Source of the DNA: a virus
Virus record (IMG/VR): IMGVR_UViG_3300020026_000005
Coordinates: 1-6,088 of that record
DNA length: 6,088 nt
Direction: 5' to 3' (one strand)
Made by a program: the position numbers and the translations under genes. Positions 1-6,088 of the stretch are shown one piece after another. The notes under the pieces are model-generated. The model saw only the letters and a list, made by a program, of their open reading frames with translations, did not search any database and had not been told where the DNA came from. Within the stretch, counting starts at the first letter, position 1; each line of letters opens with the position of its first letter.

Positions 1-119
1 CAGATACGAATTTTCGCGTATAACGGCGATGTTGGAGGAGGCAAGATAAAGGTGTAAGATTTCCATCTACGGTAACATATTTATCCGAAATTTCTTCGGG
101 GTTGAACTGAATCTGTTTA
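1..119. repeat. Terminal direct repeat, left copy (identical to 5970..6088); circular-genome assembly overlap
   Basis: Base-by-base comparison shows 1..119 equals 5970..6088 with no mismatch. The repeat lies inside the Rep coding sequence. Confidence 0.95.
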
Positions 120-664
120 GTAACATATTTAACGCAGTATCGGGCACGCTTATGGGTGGCTTTTGTTAGCCACACGAAACCAAGGTCTCGAACAGCAGAA
201 CGAATAGTATTATAGAGAACGTTCGCGCCAAACAAAAAACCGTGAAAGTGCAACCGGGGCTCATTTCCTGTTTCCGGATGAGTACCGAACTCCTGAAAAA
301 AGGCATGTTTAAATGAGTGACCGAGCTTGTGGCGTAAGCGTTCATTGAATTTCCGAATAAACCAGGACGGATCAAGCAGAGCTTCGTTATAATGCCTTGG
401 AGCAATCGTTATTGTAATGAAAATAGCCTGCTGACTATCAGCCTTACAGCGGGCAAGCTCGCGCTCCAAACGAACGAACCAATCATTGCGCTGACGACGC
501 AAGCAGTCTTCACACTTTCCGCACGGAACCATCAACCACTGGCGAGAAATGTCCCAAGGGCGAAGAGCAAGCGCAGACTTGGCGACATCAGAGCCATCTC
601 GGCAAGGGTTCTTCTTGTCAAAGTAGCGACGGTTGCGTATCCATATGGGAGAAGAGCAAGGCAT
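1..664 (-). CDS. VP4: Replication initiator protein (Rep, VP4 / phiX gpA-like HUH endonuclease), N-terminal part (aa 1-221 plus the first nt of codon 222); it runs off the left edge and continues at 5969
   Basis: I hand-translated the - strand from the ATG at 664..662. It reads MPCSSPIWIRNRRYFDKKNPCRDG...PCGKCEDCLRRQRNDW...AIFITITIAP...PRLHFHGFLFG...ARYCVKYVTKQ... with no stop down to nt 1. The rolling-circle Rep motifs are FITITI (404..421), HFHGFLF (230..250) and the dual-tyrosine YCVKYVTK (116..139; compare phiX gpA YVAKYVNK). A PCGxCxxC cysteine cluster typical of microvirus Reps is also present. The same frame has stops upstream (686..688), so ATG 664 is the start; a TTG at 685 is the only alternative. 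The ORF track missed this ORF because it has no stop inside the window on this side. Confidence 0.93.
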   Translation of the reverse strand, partial: MPCSSPIWIRNRRYFDKKNPCRDGSDVAKSALALRPWDISRQWLMVPCGKCEDCLRRQRNDWFVRLERELARCKADSQQAIFITITIAPRHYNEALLDPSWFIRKFNERLRHKLGHSFKHAFFQEFGTHPETGNEPRLHFHGFLFGANVLYNTIRSAVRDLGFVWLTKATHKRARYCVKYVTKQIQFNPEEISDKYVTVDGNLTPLSCLLQHRRYTRKFVS

Positions 665-864
665 CAGAGTAAACTTCGAAGGCAATCAAATTTAATGCTA
701 GGATGATCAAGACGACAACGAATAAGGTAATTATTTGCAGGAGTCTCGTCGGCAAACCAAGCAATAACAACTCGCTTCCTACCTCGATATGCACCAATAG
801 AATAGCGATGAGGAGTACTATTAATAGTAGGAGAAAACCTAGGACGAAAGTCAAAATAATCCAT
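664..864 (-). CDS. Hypothetical small basic protein (66 aa), translationally coupled to Rep
   Basis: ATG at 864, TGA at 666..664. The stop overlaps the Rep ATG (664..662) as TGATG. By my count 45 of 66 codons end in T, matching and exceeding the T3 bias of VP1, which argues this frame is the coding one. It has an Arg/Lys-rich patch (YRGRKRVV). I recognise no family. Confidence 0.65.
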   Translation of the reverse strand: MDYFDFRPRFSPTINSTPHRYSIGAYRGRKRVVIAWFADETPANNYLIRCRLDHPSIKFDCLRSLL

Positions 865-1110
865 AATTAAAAAAATTACTTTGCGCTTCGAAAGACGGTA
901 CTTTCGAGCACGAGAACTGTTACGTTACGCCGCTCGACGGCCTTAACGGCCGGGACGCTACGCGTCTTCGAGCTCCATGGCTTCACTTCACGAAACTGTA
1001 TACCGAATAAATTCGGTGAGTTTGAAAACAAAAACTCCCAGGGGAGAGAAGGCTCTCCCCGGGAAGTTCGTAATCAAAGAACTTTTCCACCAAGAGGGCG
1101 GGTTACAATC
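865..1110 (-). promoter_or_regulatory. Main non-coding region (246 nt) with four stem-loops; candidate for transcription termination and initiation and for ssDNA replication signals
   Basis: No plausible ORF is present. Hairpins read directly from the sequence are: 888-894/901-907 (tcgaaag/ctttcga, 6-nt loop); 938-942/948-952 (cggcc/ggccg, 5-nt loop); 1002-1008/1011-1017 (accgaat/attcggt); and 1041-1048/1053-1060 (ggggagag/ctctcccc, 4-nt loop). Confidence 0.6.
1024..1063 (-). terminator. Rho-independent (intrinsic) terminator downstream of the 107-aa ORF
   Basis: The - strand reads CCCGGGGAGAG-CCTT-CTCTCCCC(T)GGG followed by AGTTTTTGTTTTC. This is an 8-bp perfect GC-rich stem, extendable to 11 bp with one bulged T, with a 4-nt loop and a T-tract. 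It lies 48 nt after the TAG stop at 1111..1113. Confidence 0.7.
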
Positions 1111-1434
1111 CTAGTTCCCTTTCCCTTCTTCTTTCGTCGCGCCTTCATCGTAGTTGAGATCAAAATCAAACATAAGAACAAGTGTATTGTCGAAAAATTC
1201 GACACTAAAGCTAGAGAGAGCTACGCAAGCATCAATAAGGTTAGAGATCTCCGAATGATCGACATAAAGCGAATCGCTAATGTGCGAACTCTTAAAATAG
1301 TGCGCAACAGGAGAGCTGGCGATAGCATCGAGAGGAAGAGCGCTAAACTGATTATCCTTGATACGACCTATCTGGACAAGGTCGATTTTAAGAGCCGGAT
1401 TGATCCGGCGAATAACAACATGAATCTGTGTCAT
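1111..1434 (-). CDS. Hypothetical acidic protein (107 aa); by position a candidate for a VP3-like internal scaffolding protein
   Basis: ATG-to-TAG ORF on the gene strand, 11 nt downstream of the previous gene and followed by the terminator. The C-terminus is acidic (FDFDLNYDEGATKEEGKGN). I recognise no motif. Confidence 0.6.
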   Translation of the reverse strand: MTQIHVVIRRINPALKIDLVQIGRIKDNQFSALPLDAIASSPVAHYFKSSHISDSLYVDHSEISNLIDACVALSSFSVEFFDNTLVLMFDFDLNYDEGATKEEGKGN

Positions 1435-1445
1435 AATAACATAGC

Positions 1446-1763
1446 TTAAAGAATAGACTTGAATTTATCGCAAAAACGACGCCAAAGATTCGACTGGTCT
1501 ACCCAAAAGTTGTAACCTTCCGGCGTCATAGCAAACGGGAAAGACGTAGAAATGATATTTTCGACGCCAAGGAGAGATGAACGACATAAACGGCGGAGCT
1601 TAGTACGCAAATTGTCGCGAAAGGGCCGATGATTTGGGTAAAAGTTTTCATAATTCGCCTTGTACACAGAAAATAAACCTTGGCGAACAAGCCATTCAAT
1701 GAACATGTACTCAGCAACATCGACGGAGAGGTCTGAGATTCTAGATTTCTTGTCTGCTTTCAT
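1446..1763 (-). CDS. Hypothetical basic protein (105 aa) with a C-terminal FPFAMTPEGYNFW...W aromatic motif
   Basis: ATG-to-TAA ORF on the gene strand and the first gene after the promoter-like site. It is Lys/Arg-rich (MKADKKSR..., RTKLRRLCR). I cannot name a family. Confidence 0.65.
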   Translation of the reverse strand: MKADKKSRISDLSVDVAEYMFIEWLVRQGLFSVYKANYENFYPNHRPFRDNLRTKLRRLCRSSLLGVENIISTSFPFAMTPEGYNFWVDQSNLWRRFCDKFKSIL

Positions 1764-1789
1764 AGTAATATGGTTATTGGTTTACAACG

Positions 1790-1820
1790 CAAATATAAGG
1801 TAAAAAAGACAAACAGCAAA
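1790..1820 (-). promoter_or_regulatory. Putative Bacteroidetes-type promoter (-33 TTTG / -7 TAnnTTTG)
   Basis: The - strand reads TTTG (1820->1817), a 19-nt spacer, then TATATTTG (1797->1790). It lies in the 86-nt VP2/105-aa intergenic gap, 26 nt upstream of the ATG at 1763. It is the only intergenic exact match to TAnnTTTG that I found on the gene strand. Confidence 0.4.
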
Positions 1821-1849
1821 GCTCTAAAAGTCGAAAAAGTTGTTCAATT

Positions 1850-3106
1850 TTACCTTACATAGCGACGGCTAGATCTCGTAGTACCAACGAAACGGCCATC
1901 TTCGCCATAAATCTCCCTACTTTCATCGTAATCAACAGCAGTAGGACGTTTAGTTGCAGCCGTGCCGGCGATAGCCATAGCGCCAACCAAGGCAGTTCTG
2001 GCCAGGCTGTAGCCAAAAGCATTCTTACTGGAGCGGTTCTGAAACCAGCGACCCGAGAGGTCTTGTTGACCTTCCGAAGCGGCGAGACCCATAAGCTTTT
2101 GATGAATCTGGCGGCCTGTCATCTTTATTGTTTTACCGGTAGGCTTGCCTTTTCCATCAACCTCGGGAACGTCGACTTCCGAGTCCCAATTGAGACTAAA
2201 CCACTCACGAAGATCAGCTAGGTTAACCTTACGTATCTCAGACTCAACATTTAAGACATCGCCAGAGGCAGCGGATTCGTAAGCGGCGGCAAAATCACGG
2301 GCGATTTGGGCAGCGTAAACAGAATCAAAATACTTGTCATTGTACTTCTTAATCTGATTTGCCTCTTCGACATGTTTCGAATACATGGCGACGAAGTCCT
2401 GAAATTTGTATGTAGCCATGAGATCAGCATACTCAGCATCGGCAGCATGAATGTCAGCTAAAGCGCGATTAAGACGAATCAACTCGGAAACGTTATTAAT
2501 CTGATGTTCTAGAGACTTTTTCTCTAAATTGTCCATCTCCTTCCGCCAGTCTGCACTATGGGTATTACCTCTCATAAGTTCAGCCTCAGCATCATCTCGA
2601 TTAGCAGCAGCAGTATTACGGTCAACAGTCGACTGAGCCATCATATTCTGTGCAATAGCGGTAGGATCACCAGGGGAGAAAACACCGGGACTAATCGGGG
2701 CACCACCGGACGGGCCAGAGGCAGAAGGCGTAGAGGCGGAACCGCCTGACATAGTGGCATTTACGCCGACGCCGGAAGAACCTAAAACAGCAGCGGGTGT
2801 TACGCCAGCCTTCAAATAACGATCGAAAACCTTCGAAGGATCATTGTACGCATTTTCATAATCAAACTGTTTTTGCCAGTTAGCGTATGAAAGTTCAGAC
2901 TGCTTCTGCATTTGCTCTAGAGCATACTTTTGCTGAAGTGCCATCTGTTTTTGCTGAAATCTCCACTGGCGGCGAGCATTCATGCCACCGAAAAGCTGAC
3001 CTAAAAAGCCATTAATGAGGCCGTTAGTGCCAGTAGAAGCAGCAGATTCACCAAGAGCTCGACCAAAAGAGGTAGAGGCAGCAGCAGCAGCAACAGGGAT
3101 AGCCAT
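1850..3106 (-). CDS. VP2: Minor capsid / DNA pilot protein (VP2, phiX gpH-like), 418 aa
   Basis: The N-terminus is Ala/Gly-rich and hydrophobic (MAIPVAAAAASTSF...GLINGFLGQLFGG). A Gln/Lys-rich helical segment follows, ending in ...YENAYNDPSKVFDRYLKAGVTPAAVLG. This matches the YNxPxxQxxRxKxAGLNP-type motif conserved in microvirus VP2 proteins. A Gly/Ser-rich linker and a long predicted helical region come next. The gene sits downstream of VP1, as in VP1-VP2-VP4 type microviruses. Confidence 0.85.
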   Translation of the reverse strand: MAIPVAAAAASTSFGRALGESAASTGTNGLINGFLGQLFGGMNARRQWRFQQKQMALQQKYALEQMQKQSELSYANWQKQFDYENAYNDPSKVFDRYLKAGVTPAAVLGSSGVGVNATMSGGSASTPSASGPSGGAPISPGVFSPGDPTAIAQNMMAQSTVDRNTAAANRDDAEAELMRGNTHSADWRKEMDNLEKKSLEHQINNVSELIRLNRALADIHAADAEYADLMATYKFQDFVAMYSKHVEEANQIKKYNDKYFDSVYAAQIARDFAAAYESAASGDVLNVESEIRKVNLADLREWFSLNWDSEVDVPEVDGKGKPTGKTIKMTGRQIHQKLMGLAASEGQQDLSGRWFQNRSSKNAFGYSLARTALVGAMAIAGTAATKRPTAVDYDESREIYGEDGRFVGTTRSSRRYVR

Positions 3107-3107
3107 A

Positions 3108-3410
3108 CTAAATACGAGTTATATTGTTAGAGCGAATAATGTAATCGACACGCACTGTATCGATGTGCACACCATGGCGTTGCATCCTGGCTTGGGCAGC
3201 ACATGACGACAAGAAAAAGGCGGCCAAAGCAGCAACAATGGAAGAGATGAGCGTCCAAAAGGCCTTAGACTTGTAGAAAGGTTGTTTGACATTAGACATA
3301 ATAGCAAAGTTTAAAGAACGATAGAAAAATGCGCGGCCTCTCCTGCAGTCGTTACCAATAACCTTCAGCAATTCATGCACTCTTGCAAAAGGGGTCCGCG
3401 CACGTAGCAT
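3108..3410 (-). CDS. Small membrane protein / putative lipoprotein (100 aa maximal ORF; probable alternative start at 3299 giving 63 aa)
   Basis: From the internal ATG (3299..3297) the protein reads MSNVKQPFYKSKAFWTLISSIVAALAAFFLSS-C-AAQARMQRHGVHIDTVRVDYIIRSNNITRI. It has a basic n-region, an ~18-aa hydrophobic core and an L-S-S-C lipobox (Cys codon 3201..3203). The TAG at 3110..3108 lies 1 nt before the VP2 ATG. The start is ambiguous because 3300..3410 also folds into a terminator-like hairpin. Confidence 0.55.
   Translation of the reverse strand: MLRARTPFARVHELLKVIGNDCRRGRAFFYRSLNFAIMSNVKQPFYKSKAFWTLISSIVAALAAFFLSSCAAQARMQRHGVHIDTVRVDYIIRSNNITRI
3321..3401 (-). terminator. Long imperfect hairpin followed by a T-tract (possible terminator or structured ssDNA element)
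   Basis: On the - strand GCGCGG(A)CCCCTTTTGCA (3401->3384) pairs with TGCAGGAGAGGCCGCGC (3347->3331). That gives about 17 pairs including G-T wobbles that form only on the - strand, plus one mismatch, one bulge and a 36-nt loop. ATTTTTC (3330->3324) follows immediately. The element is non-coding only if the downstream gene starts at 3299. Confidence 0.3.
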
Positions 3411-3432
3411 ATATCGTCAAGTAAAGGACATA

Positions 3433-3729
3433 CTATTTTTCTTCAGAATTGGAGGGCGTTGAAACAGGATTGGACTTATCAAGCTGAGAATCAATAAGTT
3501 CCTGACCTATCTCAAGACCATCGAACTTGTCCATCCGAGAGAAAGAGTTAGGATCAAAATCAATATCAGGGTTGAATTTCTCTCCCTTCTCGAAGTCAGA
3601 AGGCTCAGCCGTCACATCTGGACGACCAGGAAGAACGTCGACAGAACCAGAACCATCGAGAACAGAAAGAATGCGCTGCCCGCGAGAAATATATGTAGGG
3701 GCGTCTTCTAATAACCATTCAAGTGCCAT
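3433..3729 (-). CDS. Hypothetical highly acidic protein (98 aa); possible scaffolding or assembly protein
   Basis: ATG-to-TAG ORF on the gene strand, 12 nt after the VP1 stop. It is Asp/Glu-rich (FNPDIDFDPNSFSRMDKFDGLEIGQELIDSQLD). I recognise no family. Confidence 0.6.
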   Translation of the reverse strand: MALEWLLEDAPTYISRGQRILSVLDGSGSVDVLPGRPDVTAEPSDFEKGEKFNPDIDFDPNSFSRMDKFDGLEIGQELIDSQLDKSNPVSTPSNSEEK

Positions 3730-3741
3730 AAAACTATAATA

Positions 3742-5559
3742 TTAACGATTAGACAAACGAGTAGCAAATGTTTTGTTTACCAGATTCTTCTTCTGAACAG
3801 CATAAGACATATTTATAAAGAAATTGTCTTCTACATCAGAAGCAAAGGGAGAGTTAACTTGCGACATATCTACAAAAAGAAACGGGTAATACACAGTGTC
3901 GCTATTATTAACAAAATCGGGGAGAGTACGCTGCTGCACCCAGTAAGAATAGAGAGGCGTTGAGACTCCAGCATCATCCGTACGAGAAAGCTGACCCATT
4001 ACCTCGTCGTAACTACTCCGGAATTCGTTAAAACAAGGCTCAGTCGAAAGGGTAGAAGTCGAAACAGTGTTACCCGCGGGGCCAAAAAGATAAACAGGAA
4101 CATCTTGGTATCCGATATCATTATAAATAGGATTGAAATAATCAGGACCCTGGTAATTCAAATAATCGGGACGAACCTGCGCCCAGTAATAGACGGGTCG
4201 AATACTCAACATATCAATCATATAGCCGGGCTCACGGAAGTAGTAAGACTGGCGACGACCGAGGCGTTCGTTGAAAGCAATAGCGCCACCCTGCTGACCG
4301 AGAGGGGGTAAAGAATACTGATCATTAGCAAAATTGTTGGCGCCGGACTGATTCATCACAACCTGGACATTGACCGTCTGAGAAGCACTAAAAAGAAGCT
4401 TGGGGCGATCCACGTGCTCAATTTTGGAGGCAAAAAACGTCTCCAACCAATCACTATAACGGCTACCACCAGCGCCAAGCAAATCCTTGTATTCCTGGAG
4501 ACGCGACGCAATAGCCAACTGAGGGATGGTATCAACACCGGACATGGAAACAGCGGAAGACGAACCTGTAGGAATAAGCCGGCTAAGTCGGTCGGGATTG
4601 GAAGGTACTACAGCCATCGGGTGGGCCGAAAGGAACAAGCCAATGGGAGTGACAGGATTAGAGGCACTACCAGTGGTCTGAAGTTGCGAAACGGGACGGG
4701 AGCCGGAAAAATCCGATGAGCTCATAGTGAGGGGGTCAGACCAAACGGGATAACCAGAAGAGTCAACACCCGAAGAACTACCGATCTGGGAATTTACAAG
4801 CTGATAAAACAGATTCGAACGGTTGTACGTGTTATTAGACGAAACAACAGACGAGGGGTAGAATTGGCTCTCAAAATAAGCATCAAGAAATTCAAGATTC
4901 GCGTAAGTTTGCGAAAAATACCTTGAGGTGGTAGAAAAAACAGTAGTAAGAGCCATATTATTAGGAGCATCCTGGGTATTAAAAACAGACCAAGAAGCCG
5001 GCCAAGCCATAGAGAACAAAGACCACTGCGAATAAGAATAATAATTACGAACGATGTCCCAATAAGCAAGATACGGATCAGCATTAACCCAGCGCTGATT
5101 ATCCAAAGTAGAAGGAAGTTCTCGCGACTGGTAAGTGGCGGTACTGGTATCCTTATTAAGGGCACGATTCGAGACACGAAGCCAAGAAAGCAAACTGTTA
5201 GGGTACCCAGTCTTAAGGTCGCCTAGACTGGGATTTGCGTTAATGGAGGCCGGCACCCAATTCGTTGAAAGGGAATTCATATCAAATTTCGACGAATTAA
5301 CGCGCATTTCCGAGTGATACAGCTGCAGAGGTACCCAAAAGCGATGCAAACGAATAACATAAGGGTTGAACGTCGGAACAGCAAGCGGGTTGCTGCGAAC
5401 GTCGATACCTTGCTCGATAGACACACGATCTCGAGCGTTAATAAAGTCAATTCTCACCGGATACAAAATACCCGGTGTACATGTAAAGGCCTTGCTCTCA
5501 GGAACATCGTAACGAGAATAGCCATTTACAGCGTGAGAGATAAAAGGTTGTTTTCCCAT
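3742..5559 (-). CDS. VP1: Major capsid protein (VP1, phiX gpF-like), 605 aa
   Basis: This is the longest ORF. Its layout is typical of microvirus F/VP1. The N-terminal strand region is ...FTCTPGILYPVRIDFI...NPLAVPTFNPYVIRLHRFWVPLQLY. The conserved central block is LAIASRLQEYKDLLGAGGSRYSDWLETFF...DRPKLL, with GGSRYSDW at 4447..4470. The C-terminal region is ...YWVQQR...FFINMSYAVQKKNLV. The start is 3 nt after the Rep stop. Confidence 0.95.
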   Translation of the reverse strand: MGKQPFISHAVNGYSRYDVPESKAFTCTPGILYPVRIDFINARDRVSIEQGIDVRSNPLAVPTFNPYVIRLHRFWVPLQLYHSEMRVNSSKFDMNSLSTNWVPASINANPSLGDLKTGYPNSLLSWLRVSNRALNKDTSTATYQSRELPSTLDNQRWVNADPYLAYWDIVRNYYSYSQWSLFSMAWPASWSVFNTQDAPNNMALTTVFSTTSRYFSQTYANLEFLDAYFESQFYPSSVVSSNNTYNRSNLFYQLVNSQIGSSSGVDSSGYPVWSDPLTMSSSDFSGSRPVSQLQTTGSASNPVTPIGLFLSAHPMAVVPSNPDRLSRLIPTGSSSAVSMSGVDTIPQLAIASRLQEYKDLLGAGGSRYSDWLETFFASKIEHVDRPKLLFSASQTVNVQVVMNQSGANNFANDQYSLPPLGQQGGAIAFNERLGRRQSYYFREPGYMIDMLSIRPVYYWAQVRPDYLNYQGPDYFNPIYNDIGYQDVPVYLFGPAGNTVSTSTLSTEPCFNEFRSSYDEVMGQLSRTDDAGVSTPLYSYWVQQRTLPDFVNNSDTVYYPFLFVDMSQVNSPFASDVEDNFFINMSYAVQKKNLVNKTFATRLSNR

Positions 5560-5562
5560 AAA

Positions 5563-6088
5563 TTAAATGTTAAGTTGAAGTTTGTAATGATCTCGCCAGA
5601 ATTGAAGAATATCCAAATCCAGCCAAGTAGGAGGATCAAAATCGGGCATCTTACGAGAGGAGGCAGAAAAACGCATCATCTGCTTTTGCTCCCACGTATA
5701 TGATGCTCTACGGGATACGGAGGAATTGAGATTGAACCGCTCAACACACAGAGACACAATACGCTTAACCAGAGGAGACTTGCTAAAGCGTGCATAAGAA
5801 TCAGCAGCGGTAATCGAGCGAGCAACGTCGTCTTCTGGTTTAAGATACTTAAAATAGTATCGAGGGATCGAGTAATTATAATTGATACGCTTATCAAAGT
5901 CAAAATAAGACCACGACGAAACACGAGCAGAAGGGCGAGGCATATAGCCAAGAAAATCACCAACGCTAGCAGATACGAATTTTCGCGTATAACGGCGATG
6001 TTGGAGGAGGCAAGATAAAGGTGTAAGATTTCCATCTACGGTAACATATTTATCCGAAATTTCTTCGGGGTTGAACTGAATCTGTTTA
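5563..6088 (-). CDS. VP4: Replication initiator protein (Rep/VP4), C-terminal part; 5970..6088 duplicates 1..119, and the non-redundant part 5563..5969 encodes aa 222-356
   Basis: The frame is continuous with the 1..664 segment: codon 222 is GCT, made of nt 1 (=5970), 5969 and 5968. The sequence reads ...RKFVSASVGDFLGYMPRPSARVSSWSYFDF... to a TAA at 5565..5563. The track's 126-aa ORF (5563..5943) is only the stretch after an internal Met. Joined length is 1,071 nt, or 356 aa. Confidence 0.9.
   Translation of the reverse strand, partial: KQIQFNPEEISDKYVTVDGNLTPLSCLLQHRRYTRKFVSASVGDFLGYMPRPSARVSSWSYFDFDKRINYNYSIPRYYFKYLKPEDDVARSITAADSYARFSKSPLVKRIVSLCVERFNLNSSVSRRASYTWEQKQMMRFSASSRKMPDFDPPTWLDLDILQFWRDHYKLQLNI
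5970..6088. repeat. Terminal direct repeat, right copy (identical to 1..119)
   Basis: Same comparison as the left copy. Position 5970 corresponds to window position 1. Confidence 0.95.

Follow-up and report, generated by a model that had tools for sequence, protein, structure and literature searches.

A conserved 63-codon gene for a predicted prolipoprotein next to VP2 in Bacteroidales microviruses, a candidate lysis or exclusion factor

The window analyzed here is the whole of a 6,088-nucleotide (nt) stretch of viral DNA (IMG/VR virus record IMGVR_UViG_3300020026_000005, positions 1 to 6,088). Its positions 1-119 are identical to positions 5970-6088, and this 119-nt terminal redundancy shows that it is a complete circular microvirus genome with a true length of 5969 nt, in which the minus strand carries all genes. 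The subject of this analysis is a small gene on this strand, lip63 (3108..3299), which has its ATG at 3299-3297 and its stop codon TAG at 3110-3108 and which codes for a predicted lipoprotein precursor of 63 amino acids (aa). In a preliminary description of the window, a gene had been placed at 3108-3410, between the capsid and the pilot protein genes. The open reading frame (ORF) 3108-3410 (minus strand, 100 aa) is indeed present, with an internal Met at 3299 that gives the 63-aa form, but its upper 111 nt (3300-3410) are non-coding. Likewise, the gene of the DNA pilot protein VP2 adjoins lip63 on one side, but the upstream neighbor is an acidic 98-aa ORF and not the capsid gene.

A protein search with the ORF finds 416 database homologues. 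For the comparison of the locus, 80 related viral contigs were fetched using the 63-aa part alone, and 73 of these loci had sufficient flank. The 63-codon ORF is intact in 73/73 loci; interruption or loss of conservation in relatives, which had been named beforehand as speaking against the gene, is seen in none of them. In the nucleotide alignment of the related loci, a clean three-base periodicity of conservation extends across 3299-3108, and the ratio of nonsynonymous to synonymous substitution rates (dN/dS) is 0.062 at a synonymous divergence (dS) of about 1.4, with the synonymous sites being saturated. By these measures, the ORF is strongly conserved. The tight packing against VP2 that had been pointed out earlier is preserved also, as the stop codon, 1 nt, and the ATG of VP2 follow each other in this way in all 73 loci.

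The 37 codons by which the 100-aa ORF appears to be extended at its N-terminus (3300..3410, minus strand) have different properties. This extension is open to the upstream ATG in 36/73 loci and, with a longer extension, in three more, which is about half of the loci. Its nucleotide conservation is very high and uniform, without codon periodicity; its proportion of synonymous differences (pS) is 0.136, compared with 0.632 in lip63, and its dN/dS is 0.57-0.77 in all three frames. In MG945713, an insertion parts the extension ORF from lip63. If the gene were the full 100-codon ORF (3410-3108), then its product would have a 50-residue cytoplasmic N-terminal domain followed by an internal transmembrane (TM) segment. 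In agreement with such a protein, 118/120 best matches of the first protein search are 100 aa long and span the entire query, but these match lengths reflect the bias of gene callers and of score ranking. Of the loci retrieved by means of the 63-aa part, only ~39/73 have an open extension, and the extension has no periodicity and is equally constrained in all frames; moreover, it is decoupled from lip63 by the insertion in MG945713 and overlaps with a structured element (described below) that is found without lip in other microviruses. The 100-codon reading is, therefore, hardly credible, and it was rejected, together with the reading as a chance ORF, on the 73/73 intact 63-codon ORFs, the periodicity, and the dN/dS. 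The same three observations identify 3299-3108 as the gene. On the evidence of these alignments, the 100-aa database ORF is a merger of lip63 with a conserved non-coding element, and as this ORF has been called in hundreds of database entries, this concerns a systematic annotation error, which is corrected here.

The lip63 sequence has the features of a lipoprotein precursor. The predicted signal peptide (codons 1-32, 3204..3299, minus strand) consists of the n-region MSNVKQPFYKSK and the h-region AFWTLISSIVAALAAFF, which is preceded by the lysines K5, K10, and K12; a basic n-region and an h-region of 7-22 residues at the N-terminus, as in lipoprotein precursors, exist only with the start at 3299. 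The hydrophobic core AFWTLISSIVAALAAFFLSS, with a Kyte-Doolittle 19-residue maximum of 2.12, is the sole TM-grade segment among the non-overlapping genes of the window, and residues 11-30 are modeled as a helix by AlphaFold2 (32-sequence alignment) with a predicted local distance difference test score (pLDDT) of about 90. The lipobox is L30-S31-S32-C33 (3201..3212, minus strand; Cys codon TGT at 3203-3201). The preliminary description is thus borne out for the n-region, which is basic, for the hydrophobic core, for the L-S-S-C lipobox, and for the remainder of 31 aa. A PROSITE PS51257-type rule ([LVI][ASTVI][GAS]C, with the Cys at 15-35) is passed by the 63-aa form (Cys33), whereas the 100-aa form fails (Cys70), and the lip63 start is the only ORF start that passes in the six frames of the genome. 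In Markov-simulated genomes, the rule is passed by 0.11 ORFs per genome, and one or more such ORFs occur in 9% of these genomes. Given this background rate, the motif by itself is only mildly significant evidence, and the case rests on conservation.

This conservation is extensive. Cys33 is invariant in 73/73 loci, and the Cys is also kept in both subfamilies of the protein (described below). In the 198 family members examined, [AGS]C is present in 192, the PROSITE-type rule in its strict form is passed by 176, the +2 position is occupied by S, A, or T, and the mature part has a median length of 31 aa. In one cluster (P0108), the lipobox Cys is replaced by a Ser, and some members have atypical residues at the -2 and -3 positions (LESC, TTSC, and FCSC). 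The signature of a small, envelope-targeted lipoprotein, as proposed earlier, is a conserved property of the family, and it is very probable that lip63 is a real gene for a 63-aa prolipoprotein, which would be exported by Sec, lipidated at Cys33, and cut by signal peptidase II. The processing and the localization, like the lytic activity considered below, are predicted properties. It had also been judged unlikely that such a protein is a virion component, and here this is considered very unlikely.

The predicted cleavage generates a mature lipopeptide of 31 aa (3111..3203, minus strand), CAAQARMQRHGVHIDTVRVDYIIRSNNITRI, with the core GVHIDTVRVDYIIRSNN and a net charge of +3. This peptide has no Pro, and no Cys other than the lipobox Cys; these C-terminal 31 aa are polar and charged, without a second hydrophobic segment. 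It is referred to as the type A module. In the type B subfamily (for example MG945453, PP511490, and PQ007377), a homologous signal peptide is followed by a different mature part, CTARHYVVQSASS.KSGDTTRTTITYEQ.GNFKRP. The type A and type B modules (about 31-35 aa) are nevertheless homologous, with D47-T48 being invariant in the alignment, and they are bridged by the intermediate P0164, whereas P0137 is a hybrid in which the two types are joined exactly at the Cys. In the distant members (P0199-P0219), the hydrophobic leaders are unrelated, but the Cys and the same mature modules are retained, as seen for the type A module behind unrelated signal peptides in P0201 and P0210. The conservation of the Cys and of the modules, together with the exchange at the Cys, suggests that the protein is cleaved and lipidated and that the short mature peptide is the functional unit.

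It can also be considered that the hydrophobic segment remains uncleaved and that the TM helix itself is the effector, as is the case for the TM domain of the phiX174 E protein, the lipobox being incidental. The leader is more conserved than the mature part (dN/dS of 0.042 and 0.086, respectively), with an invariant SK.FWTL motif in most of the lip family, which is unusual for a mere targeting signal; the atypical -2 and -3 residues mentioned above, and the similar charge on both sides of the helix, by which the topology is not set by the positive-inside rule, point in the same direction. However, an uncleaved anchor does not account for the invariance of the Cys in all 73 loci and the small residue before it in 192/198 members, nor for the modules and Cys being held behind unrelated hydrophobic segments, for recombination junctions located exactly at the Cys, or for the strong constraint on the mature module itself. 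Such an anchor is, therefore, quite improbable, and the pattern of conservation fits a cleaved lipoprotein, as judged from the family alignment.

Upstream of lip63, in the intergenic region 3300-3432, there is a conserved structured non-coding element (3321..3407, minus strand). It has an invariant outer GC stem (3403-3396/3336-3329), which encloses a hairpin (3392-3383/3371-3362) with compensatory changes at 6/9 pairs; the observed values are reached in 0/500 shuffles. An alternative helix (3394-3384/3347-3337), in which one pair occurs with four Watson-Crick types, reuses the 5' strand of this hairpin, so that the two are mutually exclusive. A T5 run comes next, at 3329-3325. An Rfam search of the entire window gives no match. 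With a covariance model, the element is also located immediately ahead of VP2 in relatives that lack lip, which indicates that it is older than lip and that lip has been inserted between the element and VP2. Intergenic terminators are known in phiX174, and a complementary-strand origin is known in G4; by analogy, the element may be an attenuating terminator that lowers the expression of lip and VP2, or it may be a complementary-strand origin. A simple sigma-70 promoter and terminator scan around lip63 gives nothing meaningful, and a sigma-70-type promoter is not expected in Bacteroidota. In some relatives, the element and the lip start codon are separated by additional insertions, which are GC-rich and 35 to about 170 nt long (L089, at about 3510-3680, minus strand; L090; L091; and L082, which is MG945713). 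Some of these insertions have their own hairpins, for example CGCGCGAAGCGCG, which is then followed by A/T runs.

The occurrence of lip was compared with the identity of the capsid protein VP1. A type A or type B lip is detected in 41/43 GenBank phage records with a VP1 that is at least 57% identical to that of the window. Of the two remaining records, MG945564 has a divergent lip copy on inspection, and MG945845 has the same VP1 match statistics, its genome not having been inspected. The gene is also present in LT986678 (52.6% VP1 identity) and PQ007107 (45%), and it is absent from three examined genomes at 38-44% VP1 identity. As judged from these genomes, lip is a core gene of a clade of Bacteroidales-infecting gut microviruses. 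It occurs at two alternative positions, either directly before VP2 (position 1, as in the window) or between VP2 and the replication gene (position 2), and it is retained despite this move. In the GenBank records, lip is "hypothetical" or unannotated, and one nr entry has been auto-named "lipoprotein". A profile search of 1.84 billion representative proteins finds 82 relatives, all of which belong to the same small family or are long forms of it, and no link from lip63 to any known protein. In position-2 genomes, the lip ORF often continues for 180-220 codons (these are the long forms, P0147-P0180; L083 1512-2114, L084 6977-7585, and L085 4688-5320). The long forms read off-frame through a conserved 133/135-aa gene and end in the frame of a J-like basic motif, RRGGRRG...IPLGGSHL; they seem to be an off-frame read-through of lip, because the other frame is 41% identical between two loci.

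In a search of 185,579 species genomes, the sole match is an integrated microvirus prophage of Alistipes montrealensis (L084 6101-11793; NZ_JAGYXY010000001.1, about 130.6-136.3 kb), which has the Rep gene, a Phage_F capsid gene, and a pilot-like gene and which is located between the host RelA/SpoT and HIT genes. This prophage establishes Bacteroidota as the host phylum and indicates that some of the relatives are temperate. Immediately upstream of its lip, there is a gene for a 154-aa HTH_3 protein, which may be a repressor.

The way in which microviruses outside the phiX174 group leave their host is largely unexplained, and in most phages with a single-stranded DNA (ssDNA) genome no recognizable lytic protein is present (PMC12596118). 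Protein E is confined to Alphatrevirus, and a recognizable lytic protein is found in only 15% of the ssDNA phages (PMC12596118). The Bacteroides fragilis microvirus phiHBP1 carries an M15A peptidase (PMC13064476). In the literature searched, no described microvirus lipoprotein and no microvirus lysis gene other than E were found. Domain library scans find no peptidase, lysozyme, or endolysin domain in any ORF of the window. For one abundant clade of gut microviruses, the present analysis narrows the search to two short, conserved, and almost unannotated proteins predicted to reside in the envelope, being the 63-aa prolipoprotein and a 119-aa membrane protein, referred to as emb119, which is hidden in the replication gene (VP4).

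It is very probable that lip63 is translated from the late operon, tightly coupled to VP2 and downstream of the structured, terminator-like element, and Sec export, lipidation of Cys33, and the signal peptidase II cut would generate a cationic 31-aa lipopeptide that is held at the periplasmic face of the Bacteroidales host's envelope. Considering the lipoprotein sorting rules of Bacteroidota, the S, A, or T at the +2 position and the lack of an acidic surface-export motif suggest that the lipopeptide is probably retained within the envelope. A possible role of lip63 is in release: the lipid-anchored peptide would destabilize the envelope from the periplasmic side, in the manner of the equally small colicin lysis lipoproteins, possibly acting together with the three-TM protein embedded in VP4. 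This role of lip63 as an envelope-breaching release factor, or as one half of one, is favored because the colicin lysis lipoproteins are its closest functional analogues, and it is put forward tentatively, at less than even confidence. The stronger statement, that lysis or release in the entire Bacteroidales microvirus clade is brought about by the lipid-anchored peptide of ~31 residues, is possible but doubtful. In favor of a release role are the absence of an enzymatic lysin, the core status of lip, its retention on relocation, its place in the late operon, and its coupling to VP2.

The colicin lysis proteins or bacteriocin release proteins (BRP; Lysis_col family, such as ColE1 Kil and the pCloDF13 BRP) are, like lip63, very small prolipoproteins (about 45-50 aa, compared with 63 aa), from which signal peptidase II cleavage leaves a lipopeptide of about 28-33 aa, as is also predicted for lip63. 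The BRP has a small lipopeptide and a stable, functional signal peptide, and it activates phospholipase A. Its unusually stable signal peptide finds a parallel in lip63, of which the signal peptide is the most conserved part, and in both cases a small selfish replicon needs the exit of its product from a Gram-negative cell. The stability of the BRP signal peptide is also named in reference titles cited in PMC5727409. There are also clear differences. The mature part of lip63 (31 aa) has the length of about 30 aa that is typical of the colicin lysis family, but no match to the family profile is found, there being no sequence similarity (no Pfam match at E<=1). In addition, the BRP genes are enterobacterial plasmid genes that act via phospholipase A, whereas lip63 is a candidate carried by an ssDNA phage of Bacteroidales.

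Several observations weigh against a release role. First, the libraries searched give no homology of lip63 to E, spanin, holin, colicin lysis, Llp/Cor-type, or defense proteins. Pfam, which we take to include the Lysis_col, Rz1, and entericidin models, gives no family at E<=1 or E<=0.1 for the 63-aa and the 100-aa forms. PHROGs, NCBIfam, and the PDB sequences give nothing significant for either form, the PHROGs search returning three weak matches; the only holin family among the matches is phrog_34682 (E 0.16, over the TM segment), which is non-significant, as is the single PADLOC match of lip63 (PDC-M02A, E 0.018, 13 bits). Second, lip63 is a free-standing gene under very strong purifying selection, whereas the known proteins of single-gene lysis evolve rapidly, and their genes often lie within other genes. 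Third, the AlphaFold2 model of the mature part is uninformative, as it is drawn as one long helix with a pLDDT of about 50. Fourth, emb119 fits a classical lysis gene at least as well. Finally, the exchange of modules among phages with similar capsids, and the prophage copy near an HTH regulator, suit exclusion or lysogenic conversion.

The last point leads to the possibility that lip63 is a superinfection-exclusion or entry-blocking lipoprotein, a role that is known for small lipoproteins encoded by phages. The lipopeptide would have TonB, the conduit of the incoming pilot protein, or the phage receptor (such as an outer-membrane transporter) as its binding partner, and, as for T5 Llp or the Cor-type proteins, it would block related microviruses and shield the progeny from debris and vesicles. 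This agrees with the two swappable mature modules being interleaved among phages with equally distant capsids and with the hybrids joined at the Cys, as module exchange is typical of host-interface genes. It also agrees with the presence of lip in the integrated Alistipes prophage directly after the HTH_3 regulator. The D-T residues, the sole invariant residues of both modules, are within a beta-strand-like motif, DTVRV, which in our view loosely recalls a TonB box, although it fails the PROSITE TonB-box pattern at two positions. With regard to the idea of a receptor mimic, the comparison of the mature peptides with VP1, VP2, and the other proteins of the phage gives only short matches at chance level. 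T5 Llp and Cor (phi80/N15/T1-like) resemble lip63 in being small, periplasm-facing, group-conserved phage lipoproteins that are not part of the virion, but the mature Llp and Cor proteins (about 60 aa) are about twice as long, are folded, and target FhuA, whereas lip63, a core gene, has its place in the late structural operon and is coupled to the gene of the pilot protein. Its clade-wide occurrence (41/43 records, plus MG945564, LT986678, and PQ007107) is unlike that of patchy accessory genes; furthermore, purifying selection is strong, within a type nothing points to an arms race, and no exclusion or defense family is matched in PHROGs, Pfam, or PADLOC. An exclusion function is considered rather doubtful.

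The second candidate protein, emb119, is encoded by a 119-aa hydrophobic ORF in another frame of VP4 (5676..6035, minus strand), of which the start (6035) is equivalent to position 66 of the circle. Three TM segments are predicted in it, and its C-terminal tail is basic. This frame is open for exactly 119 codons (median over 74) in the related loci inspected, whereas 62-73 codons are obtained in the listed genomes when the synonymous codons of VP4 are shuffled, with a mean P(sim >= obs) of 0.028. The third-position diversity of VP4 is 0.44 before the overlap, 0.18 inside it, and 0.42 just after it. Homologues are present at 52-62% VP1 identity in PQ006260, MG945564, and LT986678, but the ORF has been recorded by gene callers five times only, and no family is matched in the libraries searched. 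On this pattern of constraint, emb119 is an embedded membrane gene of the E-like or K-like kind and, as a candidate for classical lysis, equals lip63 or is better. The claim that lip63 is the best candidate for a host-envelope effector in this genome is, therefore, weakened, as the conserved emb119, being under selection, is an equal candidate for lysis; lip63 is a good candidate for lysis or exclusion, though not the sole one in the genome, and, from its conservation, a genuine clade-wide, envelope-targeted lipoprotein.

In an extension of this argument, emb119 would be the actual lysis protein, and lip63 would be an accessory that gives spanin-like or disruptin-like help, or sets the timing, at the outer-membrane step. 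The conservation of emb119 as an overlapping gene supports such a role, as does its layout of three TM segments and a charged C-terminal tail, which is like that of an embedded gene of the E/K type or of a class I holin. In the set of genomes that was scanned for embedded membrane ORFs, the position-1 members (the window, PQ006260, MG945564, and LT986678) have lip63 together with ORFs of the emb119 type, and neither of the two is found in PQ006994 (43.6% VP1 identity). On the other hand, there is no endolysin for a holin to release, the position-2 lip genomes carry a different embedded ORF of 71-80 aa, emb119 is itself without a family match, and an i-spanin-type partner is lacking, with mature lip63 having no Pro or second Cys. 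This division of labor is considered unlikely, and lip63 as a release factor, alone or as one half of a pair, is the reading that is preferred. In the position-2 genomes, a conserved 71-aa ORF with two TM segments is embedded in the replication gene (L083 2517-2732 and L084 7997-8212), these ORFs sharing the motif TIMLYCLIVLFIGGRFVIFG. Rep may commonly conceal membrane ORFs in this group of microviruses.

The comparison with other small lysis proteins gives the following picture. The o-spanin Rz1 of lambda and the unimolecular spanin gp11 of T1 are also small phage lipoproteins, which act in the last step of Gram-negative lysis. However, no i-spanin ORF is found next to lip63, its neighbors being the acidic, soluble 98-aa ORF and VP2, and lip63 lacks Pro richness, a periplasmic Cys, a spanin PHROG match, and also the C-terminal TM domain of a T1 gp11-like protein. 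Different from the spanin systems, the window has no endolysin or holin cassette (Pfam, PHROGs), and lip63 itself has no significant match to a holin family and no endolysin partner. The phiX174 E protein, an inhibitor of MraY, is, like lip63, a small membrane-targeted protein of a microvirus without a muralytic enzyme, but E is embedded in gene D and has an uncleaved N-terminal TM segment and no lipobox, whereas lip63 is free-standing, has a lipobox, and has no match among the lysis families of Pfam or PHROGs. It is emb119, inside VP4, and not lip63 that has an E-like gene architecture. Entericidin B, of which overexpression lyses the cell, has a similarly short mature lipopeptide (about 25-30 aa), but it belongs to a chromosomal toxin-antidote pair and forms an amphipathic helix, and lip63 has no Pfam match to it.

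If lip63 is indeed a release factor, then it would represent a new lipoprotein-based class of single-gene phage lysis, or of two-gene lysis with emb119, which would be convergent with the colicin lysis proteins and have interchangeable mature modules. A lytic lipopeptide would also add a new type to the "protein antibiotics", one with its site of action on the periplasmic side in Bacteroidota. If lip63 is an exclusion factor, then it would be the first one described for a microvirus of Bacteroidota.

The remaining genes of the window are those of a microvirus, and the GenBank records nearest to it are of uncultured microviruses from animal feces. The replication protein VP4 (356 aa) is encoded on the minus strand from 664 to 1 and then from 5969 to 5563, crossing the window ends, and a listed 126-aa ORF (5943-5563) is merely its C-terminal portion. 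The gene of the capsid protein VP1 (5559-3742, minus strand; Pfam Phage_F, PHROG major head protein) is followed by the acidic 98-aa ORF (3433..3729, minus strand), which is in a scaffold-like place and is intact in 72/73 loci matched, with 84% identity; no family is matched by it in Pfam and PHROGs. The VP2 gene (1850..3106, minus strand) matches the PHROG pilot protein family with an E value of 4e-9. There are two further ORFs, of 105 aa and 107 aa, and no Shine-Dalgarno sequence is seen ahead of any gene in the window, which agrees with a host from Bacteroidota. The 3' end of the 107-aa ORF is overlapped, in another frame, by a sequence for a 24-aa basic peptide, MKARRKKKGKGTRIVTRPLGGKVL (1074-1148, minus strand), in which the changes across 79 related loci are limited to K/R and V/I and which is similar to the DNA-packaging J proteins of phiX174 and G4.

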